A stretch of 64,000 bases of DNA from Trueperaceae bacterium (GTDB lineage: Bacteria > Deinococcota > Deinococci > Deinococcales > Trueperaceae), in assembly GCA_035703635.1 (NCBI GenBank), contig DASSXV010000074.1, positions 1 to 64,000 on the forward strand, written 5' to 3'. Below, piece by piece: positions 6,001 to 18,000 of this stretch. Every line of letters starts with the position of its first letter. The first letter of the stretch is position 1. Position numbers: made by a program.

Positions 6001-9000
6001 CAACCGGGTAAGGCGCGACGCCACCACCTGGCCACTGGCGGCTGAGCCGTCGCGCGCCTTCGGCGTGTGAGCACGGCCGGGGCGCAAGACCTGCCGCTAG
6101 GCGCCGAGGAGGTAACCGACCTCGAGGACACGCGCGCGCTGGCGCGCTCCGTAGCGGCCGCGCTGCCAAGCGGCGCGCTCCTGCTCCTCTCGGGGCCACT
6201 TGGCGCAGGCAAGACCACGTTCACGCAGGCCGTCGCGGCCGCGCTCGGCGTCACGGCGCCGGTGACGAGTCCGACTTACACCCTCGCGCACGAGTACCCC
6301 TCCCCCGCAGGCACGCTCGTGCACTTGGACGCTTACCGTCTCGGCGGCGGCGCGCCGTTGGCTGGCGCCATGCTCGATGACTACCTCGAACACGCGCGCC
6401 TCGTGGTCGTGGAGTGGGGCGAGGACCTGCTAGGCGAGTACCCGGACGCCTGGTGGCTCGAGTTCGGCTTCCTCGACTCCCTGGCCAGCCCCGACCCAGA
6501 GGCGGCCAGGCGGCGGTACGCGCTGTGGCGCCACCGCCCATGAGCGCCGCCCCCGACTTGCGCCTCGGCATCGACTGCGCCACCAGCTACCTCGCCATCG
6601 CCGTCGTCAGCCCAACGGCAGGCGTATTGGCGAGTGCTGCGGAAGACGTCGGGAGGGCGCATGCTGCGCAGCTGCTCGACGCGCTAACTAGGCTCTTGGC
6701 CGGCGCGGGCGTCGCCAAGCACGACATCGGCATGATCGGCGTTGGCGTCGGCCCCGGCTCCTACACGGGCGTGCGCGTGGCCGTTGCCAGCGCAACAGGG
6801 CTAAGCAGCGCCTTGGGCGTGCCGCTAGCCGGCGTCTCGAGCCTCGTCGCCCTGGCCGGCTACCATGCGGACATGGGTGAGGAGATCGTGGCGCTCAGTG
6901 ACGCACGCCGCGGCAACTGCTACGCGCAACGCTTGCGGCGCTCGCCGACTCCTGAGTGGCTGGCCCGTTACCAGGAGCTCGACGAACCGCGCAAACTCGC
7001 ACGCGAGGCCTTGGCCGTGACGTACCCGGGCTTGCGACAGGTCGAGGGCGTCGCGCCCGACGCCGCCGCCGTCGCGTGGGCGGCAACGCCGGGCCGCGAG
7101 GTCAGTCCCTACTACCTCTAAGTGGCGTTATACTGCCTCACCGCGAGACGTCGGCGTCTTCGTGGACCGCAACCGCCTGCCTCGCCCATCTAACGGACGC
7201 TAAGGCGTCGGAGCGGCCCCGGCGACGTCGTTGAGCCGTGAGCCCCAAGGGGCGGGAGTGAGCATGTTCTTCAAACTCGGACAAGAGATGGGGGTCGACC
7301 TAGGTACGGCGACCGTCCTCATCTACGTGAAAGGCAAAGGCATAATGCTGCGCGAGCCGTCGGTCATCGCCATGGTGCGCGATACGGGCGAGGTGAAGGC
7401 CGTGGGCGAGGAAGCCTACCGCATGCTCGGCAGGACGCCTGGCAACATCGTCGCAGTGCGCCCGATGCGTGACGGCGTGATCGCCGACTACGACTTAACC
7501 GAAAAGATGCTGCAGGCGTTCGTACGCAAAGTGCTTACGGGGCCGAGCAGGCTATTCAAGCCGCAGATCATGGTGTGCGTGCCGTCTGGCGTCACCGAGG
7601 TGGAGCGCCGCGCGGTGCTGCAGGCGACGCGTGAGGTCGGGGCGCGCAAGGCGTTCCTGATCGAGGAGCCGCTTGCGGCTGCCATCGGCGCGGGGGTGAA
7701 GATCGCGGAGCCAACCGGCTCGATGATCGTCGACGTCGGCGGCGGCACGACTGACATCGCCATCATCTCCCTCGGCGGCATCGTCGTCTCCGAATCGTTG
7801 CGCATCGCTGGCAACGAGTTCGACGAGTCGATCATCCGCTACATCCGCCACAAGGAGAACCTCCTCATCGGCGACCGCACGGCGGAGAACGTCAAGACGC
7901 AAGTCGGCGCCGCGATGCTGCGCGGGCCGGATGACGACGTGAGCATGGAAGTCCGCGGCCGCGACCTCATCAACGGCCTCCCCAAGAGCATCACGGTCAC
8001 GACGCGCGACGTTGTCGAGGCCCTCAAGGAGCCGATCGCCAAGATCGCAGACGGCGTGAGGCGCGTTCTCGAGCAGGCGCCACCTGAACTCGTCAGCGAC
8101 GTCATCGACCGCGGCATCATCATGACTGGCGGCGGGGCGCTGCTGCGCAACTTCGACGAGTTGCTGCGCGAAACCACCGGCATCCCGGTCATGGTGGCGG
8201 AGAACGCCACCGAGTCCGTCGCGCTCGGCACCGGCCAGGCGCTCGACATGATCCACGTACTGCAAGACGCGCTCATCTCAGACCACTTCTTGAGGCGCTG
8301 AGAGTGGCGGCGCACAAGCGCGCCGCGCGTCAAAGTCACCGGGCCAAGGGCCGGAGCCTCGGCTTCGGCCTTGGCTTCGCCGTGCTAGTCAGTTTCGCGC
8401 TGGCGCAGGCGCCGCGGGGCCAAGTGACCGACCTGAGCGTCGAGCGACTCGTCGTCGGCGACAAGGGTTACGCCGTTACAGCGGGGGCGGGCAACGTCCT
8501 CGAACGTTTCCCGGTCGAGGTGATCGGCGTGCAGTGGGATGGCGGCGCAGGCTTCCCACTCGTCCTCGTGCGCGCTAGCGGCCCGTTCATCGAGGCCACC
8601 GGTGGTGTCGCGGCTGGCATGAGCGGCAGCCCCGTCTACATCGTCACCGAAGGGGGTGACGCCCTCATCGGCGCCATCGGTTACGTGTTCCCGCGCGCAG
8701 ACCACGACTTGGCGTTGGTAACGCCCATCGGAGTCATGCGCAAGGCAGTTACCGAGCGCATGCCTCCTTTCGTCGAAGTGCCAGGCGTTGGCGTCGCCGT
8801 GCCCGCCGCCACGCCGATCCTCATGACCGGCGTGTCTGCACGCGCGGCGCAACTCTTGGGGCCGCTCGTCAAGGACACGCGCTTCGAACTCTTTAGCGCG
8901 CAGGGCGGCGGCGGGGTCCTGCCGCCTGGCACACCGCTGGCCAGCGAGCTCGTGCCCGGCTCACCGCTGGCCGTCTCCCTCGCGTGGGGCGACGTGAGCA

Positions 9001-15000: not shown

Positions 15001-18000
15001 CCCGCTCGAGGGCGCGGGTCATTGGCTTGGGCTCGTGCCGCTCGTCGGCAAGTACCTGAAGCGCCACGCCGTTAGGTTGTTCGTCAGTGGCCTCAAGGTG
15101 CCGGTATCGCTGCCTAACCGCATGGCAGGCGAGGATTTGATGGTCGAGCTAAGTGGCCACGTCGACCCAGAACGGGTAGCGAACGCCGTGGCGAACATGC
15201 TGGCGGACGAAGCCGACTTGGCGCGGCGCCGCGAGCGCCTGGCCGCCACCATGCCGCGACGCGGTGCGGCAGCCGCGCTACTCGCGGAAGTCATGCATGA
15301 GGGAGAGGCGGAGCAGAGGCCATGAGTGCCAGTGAGCCAGGGGGCGGCAGCGGCCCGGGCGCGCTCTTGTGGCCACGCTCGACTAGCGCCTGGCTTGGGG
15401 TGGCGGCCGCGCTGATCGGCGCCGGCATGCGGGTGGCCATCGTGCCGCTGTTCATCACGCCGCTGTTCGATGAGGTGCTGCAGGCGCAGGACGTGTCCGC
15501 GCTACCGCGCGTGCTGTTGGTAGCTGGCGCCATCGCGCTTGGCGGCAGCCTCGCCTTGTGGGCGCAGGACGCGCTCCTCGGTCGTGCGGCCGCACACGTC
15601 GGCGCACTGTGGCGCGAGCGCCTCTACGGCAAACTCCTCGCCGCGGCCCCAGGCAGCTTGCCAGGGACGAGCGGCGCCCTAGCCGGCAGGGTGGTGAGCG
15701 ACCTGCGCGAGGTAGAGACGTACTTCCGCTACGGGCTCGGCACGCTCATCACCGAAAGCGCCACCTTGGCGCTGATCCTCGCGCTGCTCGTACGCTCCGA
15801 CGCGCGTGCGGCCGGCGCGCTCTTCGCGCTTGCTTTGCCCGCCGCGTTCGCGCTGCGCCTCGTCGGCCGCTGGTTGGAGGGTGCCACCCGTGGGGCGCTC
15901 GAAGGCACGGAAGAAGTCGCTCACCACCTGCAGGAGGGCCTGAAGCACCACGAGCTCGTGCGCGCCTTCGGGGCCAACCGCGCCATGCTTGCGCGTTTCG
16001 AGGCCGCCAATCGGCGCACGGCGCGGGCGACGGCGCGGCGCAGCCTGATCGCCGGCCTGCAGACGCCACTCACGCAACTGATCGTGTTCGGCGCCGTAGG
16101 GTTGCTGGTAGTGCTGTTGGTCAACGCCGTCGGGCGCGGCGCCCTAACGGTCGGCGACGTCGTCGCGTTCCTCACCCTTGTTGCCCTTGCGGCTACCCCA
16201 ACGCAGCTCCTACCGCAGGGTTACGCCATGTACCGCCAGGCGCGGGCGGCCGCCACGCGCCTCAACGACCTGTACCGCGGCGGAAGCCCCACCCCCGACC
16301 TTGGCGCCAGCGAACCGGCGGCGGTGCGGTTCAGGGCGCTACGTCAGTCGCCTGCGCTCGCGGGCGCTGCTCCCCTGTTGACGTTGCAGGACGTCAGCTT
16401 CGGCTACGCTCCCGGGCGCCAGGTCTTGTCCGGCGTGAACCTCACGTTCCCGGACCGCGGTCTAGTGGTGGTCGGCGGTGCGAGCGGCAGCGGTAAGACG
16501 ACGCTGCTCAGGTTGCTGCTACGCTTCGCCCTGCCGAGCGCGGGCCGCGTGACGCTGGCTGGGCAGGACCTAGCGACGGTCGAGGAGGCCAGTTTGAGGA
16601 CGCGACTGGCCTACGTGCCGCAAGGGCACGAGCTCCTCTCTGGCGAGCTGCGCGCGGCGTTGAAGATGGGCAGGGACGTCACCGACGCCGAGCTGTGGTG
16701 GGCGCTCGAGGCCGTCGGCATGGCGGCGGCGGTGCGCGCGCTGCCCGAACAGTTGGGTGCGCAGCTCGGCGAGGACGGCGGCGGCTTCTCCGGCGGGCAA
16801 CGGCAGCGCCTCGCCATAGCCCGCGCCCTCCTCGGCCGCCCCGACGCCGTGCTGCTAGACGAGCCGACGTCAAGCCTCGACGACGCCAGCGAAGCCGAGA
16901 TCGTCGCCCTCCTCGTGCGCCTGGCCAGTGAGCGCTTGGTCCTCGCCGTAACGCACCGGCCCGCCCTGGCGCGCAGCGCCGACGTGGTTGTCATGGCCGA
17001 GGGGCAAGCGGCGGTGAAGGCGTGATCTACGACGACGCGGCCGACCTCTACGACCTGCAGTACGCCGCCTACCGCGATGACGTGCCGCACTACCTGCGCC
17101 TAGCTGACGACCTCGGCGGCCCCATCCTCGAGCTAGGGGCGGGGACCGGGCGTTTGACCGAAGCGTTGGCGCGGGCGGGCCACGAGGTGGTGGCCGTCGA
17201 CGCGGCGCCAGCCATGCTCGCGCGCGCACGGGCGCGCGTGACGGCGCCCAACGTGAGGTTCGTCGAGGCCGACATGCGCGCCCTTGACCTAGGGCAACAG
17301 TTCGCGCTCGTCATCGCGCCGTTCAACACGCTCATGCACGCGTACACGCTTAGCGAACAGGACAGCACGCTGGCAGGAGTACACCGCCACCTGGCGCAGG
17401 GCGGCACGTTCGCGTTCGACGTCTACCAACCTCACCTTGGCGCGCTAGGTGTGATGCGCCGGGAGGAGACGTGGGGCGAGCTAGCAGAGGGCACCGAACT
17501 CTTCCTGATCCAGCACCACGACGCCGAGGCGCAGCTGGTCGAGAGCCGCTACTACTTCGACGAGGTGCTAACGGACGGCTTGGTGCGGCGCCGCACGGCG
17601 CGGCTCCTGCAGCGCTACTACCACCGCTATGAGCTGGAGCGCGCGCTGGCGCAGGCTGGCTTCAAGCAGGTGAGGTTGTTCGGCGGCTTCGACAAGTCGC
17701 GGTTGTTGGCCAGCAGCCTCGCCATCGTTGGCTCGGCTAGCCGCTGATCACTCTTCCAACGCCAGGCGCTCGATGATGCGCCAATCGGACTGACGCACGA
17801 CGATCGCCTCGGGCAGGCGCAGCGACTCCCACAAGGTGAACGGGTCGACGTCGTTGGCCTTGGCTAGCGCCAAAGCGATGACGGTGCCGTGAGAAACGAC
17901 GGCAAGGCGCTTGCCTGCCCGCGCACTGACGGCGGCGCCCACGCCAGCTAGGAAGCGCCGCTTGGCCTCGTCTGCTGTCTCGTTGCCGAACACCAACACG

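Follow-up and report, generated by a model that had tools for sequence, protein, structure and literature searches.

Relatives of Deinococcus and Thermus that bear lpx genes probably make a lipid anchor of an undescribed kind, as predicted from the genes of an operon in a Trueperaceae bacterium (assembly GCA_035703635.1), of which we analysed a window of 64,000 nucleotides (positions 1-64,000 of contig DASSXV010000074.1), and from its counterparts among 201 Deinococcota genomes. Of these genomes 65 are lpx-bearing (64 with LpxC, and G184), while the other 136 have neither LpxC nor the glycosyltransferase discussed below. The main correction to the survey's finding concerns this glycosyltransferase, a protein of 416 amino acids whose gene had been read as a divergent lpxB; the gene lies on the same strand as the rest of the operon, and its sequence places the protein in a separate, uncharacterised family of LpxB paralogs. 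The reading that we tentatively prefer is that of a Kdo-free anchor with two chains, built on a single diaminoglucose.

The operon comprises nine plus-strand open reading frames from 8304 to 17747, each abutting or overlapping the next. It follows mreB (7231..8301, plus strand; PF06723, 457.9 bits), a gene that anchors the cluster on its upstream side throughout the phylum and precedes it in loci of families f1, f3, f4 and f5. The first frame (8304..10046) encodes a protein with a hydrophobic stretch at its N-terminus, and the S55 (SpoIVB)-like match that the survey had given it does exist, but lies under the cut-off (PF05580, 21.7 bits against 25); the gene is present in 13 of the 19 operon loci fetched and in none of the four f3/f4 loci, and searches of the text and supplement of PMC5007114 found no SpoIVB-like gene in the Negativicutes envelope cluster. 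It is followed by lpxD (10039..11112; TIGR01853, 298.7 bits, cut-off 242.5), lpxC (11109..11882, the start at 11109 being probable; PF03331, 199.9 bits; TIGR00325, 154.5 bits, under its cut-off of 187.25) with the zinc motifs EH and HKxxD intact, the dehydrogenase gene gnnA (11879..12865), fabZ (12871..13293; TIGR01750, 158.2 bits, cut-off 155.15) and lpxA (13293..14078; TIGR01852, 236.7 bits, cut-off 231.05), so that LpxD, FabZ and LpxA again score over cut-off on their NCBIfam models. Downstream of the paralog gene (14075..15325) lies a half ABC exporter (15322..17025) consisting of a membrane domain and an ATPase (PF00664 and PF00005), which follows the paralog in 17 of the 19 loci and whose earlier name msbA reflects position, its score being 212.9 against a TIGR02203 cut-off of 602. 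A class I SAM methyltransferase (17022..17747; PF13649, 73.5 bits) is encoded at the conserved end of the operon in f1 and f5; its gene was found in 14 of the 19 loci and in none of the four from f3/f4. In four sludge runs labelled RNA, drawn from two studies, the contigs cover 30 of 30 bins evenly, flanks included, and transcription of the operon therefore cannot be read from these runs. A promoter scan returned 0 sites and a metagenome scan with one protein no matches.

The 416-residue protein scores 19.7 bits on the LpxB model TIGR00215 against a cut-off of 190.25, and none of the 65 lpx-bearing genomes holds a canonical LpxB over that cut-off, with positive controls matching; likewise, no LpxB homologue is entered for Truepera or Marinithermus in supplement 2 of PMC5007114. 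Homology between the paralog and LpxB nevertheless extends over the full length (probability 99.7, 341 columns), LpxB being the only match under E 0.9 by sequence profile. In phylogenetic analysis the paralog forms a clade separate from canonical LpxB, within which the Deinococcota proteins are a branch of their own, and its grouping with canonical LpxB was rejected (p-AU 0.003, for 42 of the 104 rows). The residues of the UDP site are kept (GSR, T, E and N, for E. coli S200, R201, T277 and E281, as well as N316). NGPGELYTW and LGGN stand in place of the GExSGD loop and E. coli D98, the predicted base among the residues set out for LpxB in PMC5785501. Of 80 outside paralogs, 70 retain the Asp at this position, as do those of f5, whereas f1, f3 and f4 have lost it; the invariant Glu of the N-terminal NGPGE motif could, however, serve as the base, so the loss may mean little. 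The modelled structure has a GT-B fold closest to UDP-GlcNAc 2-epimerase (Z 24.9, rmsd 3.9, 326 aligned); LpxB, a domain-swapped dimer in its solved form (PMC5785501), is not among the best 50 fold matches listed, which excludes nothing. A complex prediction for the paralog and the ABC exporter scored 0.00, an answer in neither direction.

The distribution of the paralog is strict, since it occurs in exactly the 64 LpxC genomes and G184 and in 0 of the 136 others, and it lies within 176 nt of lpxA in 18 of 19 operons (775 nt in the remaining one). Outside the phylum, canonical lpxB stands between lpxA and the paralog in all ten loci that reach lpxA, four genomes carry both genes, and one natural fusion joins LpxB to the paralog (P0152). 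A role as strict replacement of WaaA was ruled out, because Fretibacterium carries both. The absence of WaaA, LpxK, KdsA, LpxI and LpxH, first reported for a single genome, extends to all 65 lpx-bearing genomes, none of which has a match over cut-off, and the lack of WaaA, KdsA and LpxK supports the Kdo-less character proposed earlier. LpxA, LpxC and LpxD are present, whereas the usual disaccharide of lipid A is not established, because the supposed lpxB is the paralog and canonical LpxB was not found. The missing LpxH and LpxI are weak evidence in themselves, since eight of the ten outside loci show no lpxI either and Synechococcus has no match over cut-off for either enzyme. The presence of the paralog in exactly the 65 lpx genomes, from which canonical LpxB, LpxH and LpxI are all missing, nonetheless points to non-standard steps after UDP-di-N-acyl-diaminoglucose. 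For secondary acyltransferases (PF03279), five genomes gave one weak match, which scores as a PlsC-type enzyme.

With the standard later steps (LpxH/LpxI, LpxB, LpxK, WaaA and Kdo synthesis) absent, the paralog, whose ancestral place would be after LpxB and before the exporter, would carry out the next glycosyl transfer onto the diacyl sugar itself. The product would be a Kdo-free glycolipid with a single diaminoglucose and two amide-linked chains instead of a four-chain disaccharide, which the ABC exporter would flip and LptC/D/F-like proteins presumably carry onward. With 3-hydroxy-C16 chains, we calculate ~0.69 kDa for the core of a single sugar and ~1.35 kDa for that of a disaccharide, substituents not counted. 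We regard this prediction as the best reading of the genes, to be held with some reserve. The homology of the paralog to LpxB and its retained UDP site count against it, and could mean that the paralog, or a TIGR03492 protein, took over synthesis of the beta(1-6) disaccharide after loss of lpxB, with lipid X coming from a hydrolase as in Cyanobacteria and a Kdo-less, 4'-unphosphorylated diaminoglucose lipid A as the product. This would be the survey's reading with its enzyme corrected. Such a takeover, which we consider possible but doubtful, would agree with the exact co-occurrence of the paralog with the pathway, its position next to lpxA, the separate Deinococcota branch and the four-enzyme, Kdo-less LPS already known (PMC3087551). 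However, the coexistence of the paralog with LpxB elsewhere implies that disaccharide synthesis was not its ancestral job, and f1, f3 and f4 have neither the GEASGD loop nor an Asp as predicted base. Moreover, the sole LpxG-like candidate, a YaeI/LpxG-like phosphoesterase (C23:58420-59274; LpxG model 77.4 bits against 350), was rejected as a dedicated lipid X-forming enzyme, as it occurs in 91 of 92 f2 genomes and is missing from many lpx-bearing ones. TIGR03492, a second LpxB-related family, is also present, which counts against the single-sugar reading, and a second copy is common in lpx-bearing f3/f4 genomes, in favour of a takeover. As a whole, however, it was rejected as lpx-specific, since 138 of the 201 genomes hold it, among them many that have no lpx genes; a subfamily may track lpx.

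The sugar on which the preferred single-sugar anchor would be built depends on the dehydrogenase. Its identification as GnnA was borne out, as its best solved relative is 7bvj (E 2.2e-42), whose record title names GnnA of Acidithiobacillus ferrooxidans, the next PDB match standing at E 4.5e-14. The structural model matches GnnA with Z 37.5 (rmsd 2.3, 298 aligned, 34% identity) and WlbA with Z 34.4 (21%), and among characterised proteins GnnA stands closest, ahead of WlbA/WbpB and the inositol dehydrogenases. The lysine of EKP and the histidine of DLMIHD, which we take to be catalytic in GnnA, align with it, both motifs being common in the wider family. In a tree whose rows were picked by likeness to the query, and from which Acidithiobacillus GnnA itself is absent, gnnA falls in a 117-row clade (support 99) with lpx- or gnnB-linked dehydrogenases of other phyla, apart from the WlbA-type. 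The gene lies immediately 3' of lpxC in 55 of the 62 genomes with both, but the two do not occur in exactly the same genomes as had been stated for a different sample of 151: of the 201 genomes, 64 have LpxC and 63 the dehydrogenase, the exceptions being G187 and G192 with LpxC only and G184 with the dehydrogenase only. LpxA provides a further indication, in that the His-Asp of most LpxA proteins, whose His we take to be catalytic, reads His-Asn in 22 of 61 rows, including the protein in the window, at three places in the tree and each time with gnnA, although the f3/f4 proteins retain His-Asp in the presence of gnnA.

A partner aminotransferase, GnnB, had been left unassigned, and candidates can now be named. 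In f3/f4, each of the 27 lpx-bearing genomes contributes one gene to a 27-row DegT clade (support 100), to which the 37 lpx-negative genomes that gave a match contribute none; the clade's genes adjoin lptF in 23 of the 27 genomes, a neighbourhood that is not specific, because LptF/G is also found in lpx-negative genomes. In the present genome the candidate is a C3-type aminotransferase (C18:2328-3458) unlinked to the operon. WbpE and QdtB are among its best solved relatives, whereas for the two remaining DegT proteins ArnB/PseC models give the highest scores; we take these pairs to represent C3 and C4 aminotransferases, respectively. It is also the best of the three matches to the DegT gene that adjoins gnnA in 22 of 80 outside loci. 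The assignment is less certain for the family of the present genome, as the C18 protein sits in a 69-row clade shared with polysaccharide-cluster enzymes that the tree, which omits three short DegT fragments and five C4-type or long-branch rows, does not separate. A full-length C3-type gene was not recovered from six of the 64 LpxC genomes (G155, G170, G181, G185, G187 and G188), three of which were re-searched.

Orthology, gene position, the GnnB candidates and the LpxA substitution together support a diaminoglucose backbone, while family f5, with its intact operon lacking gnnA (L156), departs from the survey's claim for all LPS-bearing Deinococcota. It is likely that GnnA would oxidise UDP-GlcNAc at C3, that GnnB (here most likely C18:2328-3458) would aminate the product, and that LpxA, LpxC and LpxD would then yield UDP-2,3-di-N-acyl-diaminoglucose, a chemistry taken from known orthologues of the identified genes. 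Bacteria with GnnA can make mixed backbones. There is only a small chance, in our estimate, of a glucosamine or mixed lipid here, the dehydrogenase feeding LpxA poorly or working towards something else, for instance a surface polysaccharide, and staying in the operon by inheritance. The f5 operon shows that the pathway runs without gnnA, gnnB lies outside the operon, the sole C3-type gene of several f1 genomes lies in a polysaccharide cluster, and the archaeal NCBIfam UDP-GlcNAc 3-dehydrogenase model scores far under cut-off (172.8 against 450); but gnnA is found in 0 of the 136 genomes with neither LpxC nor paralog, polysaccharide-type dehydrogenases fall in other clades, LpxA His-Asn occurs only alongside gnnA, and gnnA and gnnB of Mesorhizobium are unlinked too (PMC5644692).

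Diacylglycerol glycolipids are known from Thermus and Deinococcus. An outer membrane of such lipids, the lpx genes being in decay or repurposed and making a minor lipid or none, appears improbable. In its favour, searches of 136 of the 201 genomes did not find the cluster, G184 has gnnA and the paralog but neither lpxC nor lpxD, g29 and G169 have a split operon, and our literature search found no lipid A chemistry for Deinococcota. Against it, all frames are open with active-site motifs preserved across four families, the gene trees match family and genus labels, and loss, where it occurred, was clean, with fabZ directly after mreB in the lpx-negative G055 and G004.

Taken by themselves, diaminoglucose and the lack of Kdo would amount only to known chemistry recorded in one more phylum, and Kdo-lessness itself is not new, being known for Cyanobacteria and Dictyoglomi (PMC3087551). 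The paralog, by contrast, is a candidate for the open step in which Cyanobacteria and related lineages add a sugar in place of Kdo. Cultured, harmless species carry the operon genes, and Meiothermus ruber, Truepera radiovictrix and Marinithermus hydrothermalis are entered with LpxA, LpxC and LpxD in supplement 2 of PMC5007114. More speculatively, and with a probability we would put low, lpxB would have been lost in the Deinococcota ancestor, and the descendants that bear lpx genes would export a surface glycolipid whose anchor is one diaminoglucose carrying two amide-linked chains. Such an LPS-type pathway, devoid of the lipid A disaccharide, would stand halfway towards the outer membranes of Deinococcus and Thermus, which are free of LPS; the paralog family would then be the transferase placing the first sugar on the lipid A 6-hydroxyl in Kdo-less lineages, e.g. 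Cyanobacteria.

Compared with LpxB of E. coli (GT19; PMC5785501), the paralog shares the GT-B fold, full-length homology, the UDP-binding GSR/Thr/Glu and the PN motif, but differs in its separate clade, in NGPGE replacing GEASGD, in the lost base Asp of f1, f3 and f4, in an insert of ~23 residues in the C-terminal domain and in its occurrence beside LpxB in other lineages. The GnnA/GnnB pathway of Acidithiobacillus ferrooxidans, Phyllobacterium and Mesorhizobium (PMC5644692) resembles that of Deinococcota in a GnnA orthologue tied to lpx genes and in the presence of a C3-type aminotransferase with LpxA, LpxC and LpxD. In contrast, Deinococcota gnnA sits between lpxC and fabZ and not beside gnnB, and LpxH or LpxI, LpxB, LpxK and WaaA, which those bacteria possess, were not found in the operon genomes. 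The four-enzyme, Kdo-less pathway of Cyanobacteria and Dictyoglomi (lpxD-lpxC-fabZ-lpxA-lpxB; PMC3087551) has the same gene order and likewise no LpxK, WaaA or LpxH. Three of its four enzymes, LpxA, LpxC and LpxD, are present in Deinococcota, where gnnA is inserted, and canonical LpxB and KdsA are missing, whereas Synechococcus matches KdsA and its LpxB scores over cut-off. A cluster for which we found no description in print, lpxA-(lpxI)-lpxB-paralog-ABC exporter-TIGR03492, occurs in Synergistota, Armatimonadota, Sysuimicrobiota and metagenome contigs; it keeps lpxB where the Deinococcota slot is empty, and resembles the Deinococcota operon in that the exporter follows the paralog and that gnnA lies inside the lpx cluster in seven of the ten loci reaching lpxA.

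In the window, mreB, an S55-like gene, lpxD, lpxC, a Gfo/Idh/MocA dehydrogenase (gnnA, 11879-12865), fabZ, lpxA, a 416-aa glycosyltransferase (14075-15325), an ABC exporter and a methyltransferase form a tight run on the forward strand (7231-17747), across which GC content is flat. GC falls to 0.54-0.58, from about 0.68 elsewhere, at positions 38001-42000, which are likely an inserted stretch. The methyltransferase (17022-17747) keeps its place behind the 416-aa gene even at loci lacking the exporter (L039, L041), and may serve to modify the lipid or its glycan. The absence of a canonical LpxB, with an uncharacterised paralog in its place, is a more surprising result than the diaminoglucose and Kdo-less predictions made previously. 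No gene passes the cut-off of the canonical LpxB model TIGR00215 (190.25) in any of the 65 genomes where LpxC or gnnA was detected, whereas the 416-aa gene is present in exactly the 64 LpxC genomes plus one gnnA-bearing genome (G184), and in none of the 136 others. In the second supplement of PMC5007114, Truepera radiovictrix and Marinithermus hydrothermalis are likewise entered without an LpxB homologue, and the LpxB entry for Meiothermus ruber is the accession next to lpxA; the main text, as far as available, contains a single mention of lpxB and makes no comment on missing homologues.

The survey's finding had described the 416-aa gene as a divergent lpxB. The protein scores only 19.7 bits on TIGR00215, and in an LpxB-type tree of 104 rows canonical LpxB, TIGR03492 (a second LpxB-related family) and the paralogs form three clades (support 99, 100 and 99, respectively); grouping the Deinococcota proteins with canonical LpxB was rejected (p-AU 0.003; 42 of the 104 rows). 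Score, tree and topology test rule out LpxB and place the gene in a separate LpxB-paralog family. A Trueperaceae record is the closest named relative, and named homologues of the 416-aa protein likewise come from Trueperaceae, so that the source genome's own family (f1) is taken as Trueperaceae; another family (f2) is presumed to be Deinococcaceae. A profile search at E 1e-30 yielded 417 representatives of the paralog family, the named ones being Limnochordales, Sericytochromatia, Bipolaricaulia and a Bacillota genome. The Atlas clusters closest to the 416-aa protein consist mainly of cyanobacterial proteins about 430 aa long, of which between a third and a half are assigned to the LpxB family. 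Four of five outside genomes have both canonical LpxB and the paralog; two of these four LpxB fall under the cut-off and one is cut by contig ends, yet they lie in the canonical clade. In one protein (P0152) a canonical LpxB (331.8 bits) is fused to a member of the paralog family. Among 80 metagenome paralog loci, which include close kin, 10 extend as far as lpxA, and every one of these has canonical lpxB separating lpxA from the paralog; the 51 loci of at least 8 kb contain the exporter in 37 and TIGR03492 in 32 cases. The Deinococcota operons have nothing in the place of lpxB: in 18 of 19 the paralog adjoins lpxA, and in the remaining one the two are 775 nt apart.

Fretibacterium has, in this order, lptF, lpxI, lpxB, the paralog, the exporter and a single 770-aa frame (L310:5794-8106, minus strand) in which LpxK is fused to a TIGR03492-type glycosyltransferase, a fusion that ties TIGR03492 to lipid A. 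Most lpx-bearing genomes of two families taken to be Thermaceae and Marinithermaceae (f3/f4) carry two TIGR03492 genes and lpx-negative ones one or none, while Trueperaceae have one lower-scoring copy (C36:23388-24578 in the source genome) whose presence nearly tracks the lpx genes; a subfamily of TIGR03492 may belong to the pathway. On the same contig, a UDP-sulfoquinovose synthase-like gene (E 2.8e-97, below the model cut-off) followed by a GT4 glycosyltransferase (C36:28676-31055; L323:14677-17056, minus strand) makes a sulfolipid pathway in Trueperaceae possible. The paralog retains the LpxB UDP site and not the GEASGD loop. The Asp corresponding to D98, the predicted base of LpxB (PMC5785501), is kept in 70 of the 80 outside loci and in both proteins of a fifth family (f5), and is replaced in the paralogs of Trueperaceae and f3/f4 and present in 2 of the 120 closest homologues. 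Judging from gene context, the usual step of the paralog would fall between LpxB and the flip and probably consist in the transfer of a sugar onto the lipid. Where lpxB has been lost, its substrate would be the diacyl sugar itself, and a single-sugar, two-chain anchor, at somewhat less than even probability, is our tentative product; a takeover of the condensation by the paralog or by a TIGR03492 protein is somewhat less probable. Fusions of the paralog to a cytidylyltransferase-like domain (P0254) and a GT2 domain (P0255), together with a similar nucleotidyltransferase gene preceding it in L396, L398 and L423, hint at a nucleotide-sugar donor.

The 328-aa dehydrogenase matches 7bvj at E 2.2e-42, against 4.5e-14 for the next solved entry, and 7bvj is also the best structural match of its predicted model (pLDDT 92; Z 37.5, rmsd 2.3, 298 aligned; WlbA Z 34.4). 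The entry title, GnnA of Acidithiobacillus ferrooxidans, bears out the identity given in the survey's finding. In a tree of 163 rows chosen by likeness to the query, the 40 Deinococcota proteins form one clade (support 99) within a larger clade of 117 rows (99), from which WlbA-type proteins and the other Gfo proteins of the genome are separate, and are sister to three Armatimonadota/Sysuimicrobiota-type proteins (97). These come from gnnB-gnnA pairs away from lpx genes (L048:3518-5565, L042:8817-10930, L093:8764-10924), as would be expected if the Deinococcota GnnA were old and passed down vertically.

Among the three DegT-family proteins of the source genome, C18:2328-3458, with WbpE and QdtB among its best solved relatives, best matches the DegT gene adjoining gnnA in 22 of 80 outside loci. 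At E 1e-70, hits were obtained in 56 of 64 LpxC genomes versus 37 of 137 others, two further LpxC genomes being added from a second search. One clade of the DegT tree (137 rows; support 100) comprises exactly one gene per lpx-bearing f3/f4 genome (27) and none from the 37 lpx-negative genomes with a hit; this GnnB candidate is the last gene of an operon with LptC-like, LptD-like and LptF/G genes, 23 of the 27 adjoin lptF and three of the other four lie at contig ends. The lpx-negative matches adjoin wlbA- or wlbB-like genes in 34 of 37 cases, and the Trueperaceae candidates group with these polysaccharide enzymes; among 13 Trueperaceae regions, the candidate lies near metY and relA in five, and lptF comes into view beyond relA in three. 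The GnnB case is weaker in Trueperaceae than in f3/f4. In Mesorhizobium gnnA and gnnB are reported as unlinked (PMC5644692, in part).

Gene identities, order, distribution and profile-based absences were observed directly; by analogy with the orthologues, UDP-GlcNAc would quite probably be converted via UDP-GlcNAc3N to UDP-2,3-di-N-acyl-diaminoglucose. The Asp that follows the catalytic His of LpxA, whose role we assume here, is replaced by Asn in 22 of 61 rows (all 14 Trueperaceae-type, G202, G203 and one clade of metagenome loci), and every Asn row comes with gnnA, either at the locus itself or in the genome; Asp is kept in both f5 rows and in two metagenome loci whose cluster lacks gnnA. 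An amine acceptor would presumably need less base activation, and the substitution is a further, sequence-based hint of diaminoglucose, one-way because most GnnA-linked LpxA, including f3/f4, retain Asp. A glucosamine or mixed backbone is improbable. A Methylococcales LpxA (L101:9217-9957) falls among f3/f4 proteins in a quick tree, by artefact or transfer.

LpxC occurs in 64 and the GnnA-type dehydrogenase in 63 of 201 Deinococcota genomes, with both in 62 and gnnA directly 3' of lpxC in 55 of these. The survey's finding of the dehydrogenase in exactly the LpxC genomes is not matched in this sample: in two f5 genomes (G187, G192) LpxC is present and gnnA was not found, G187 having the whole operon minus gnnA, and G184 lacks both lpxC and lpxD but retains gnnA along with the 416-aa gene. 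In a named record (L040), gnnA follows S55 with nothing between, and such losses of lpxD and lpxC, as in G184, were counted as one case; a GT2 gene (L040:15187-15978) is inserted between its exporter and methyltransferase. In two lpx-negative genomes fabZ comes immediately after mreB, so lpx loss in the phylum looks vertical and repeated. The operon is real and conserved, and a decaying pathway is improbable. One genus (G105, G031, G163) has it split 3' of lpxC, in G169 it is scattered over at least four contigs and its two congeners lack the genes, and in G158 lpxC, gnnA and the paralog each occur twice (C1 and C2) with identical scores, by duplication or assembly artefact.

An LPS outer membrane has been reported for the ancestor of the phylum (PMC5007114, in part), and T. 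thermophilus and D. radiodurans are described, in the available text of PMC13721041, as having outer membranes that lack LPS. In the open literature we found no lipid A chemistry for Deinococcota, no mention of GnnA in the phylum and nothing that describes the paralog family; the chemistry or such a description could stand in subscription papers or bioRxiv supplements, which lie outside this scope. WaaA, LpxK, KdsA, LpxI and LpxH were over profile cut-off in none of the 65 genomes, while controls were detected. The earlier diaminoglucose and Kdo-less predictions are reasonable, though neither universal nor new in kind. For Kdo-lessness the precedent is in Cyanobacteria and Dictyoglomi, which are described, in the part of PMC3087551 available, as having LPS without Kdo and a pathway limited to LpxA, C, D and B, with the same gene order as in the Deinococcota operon.
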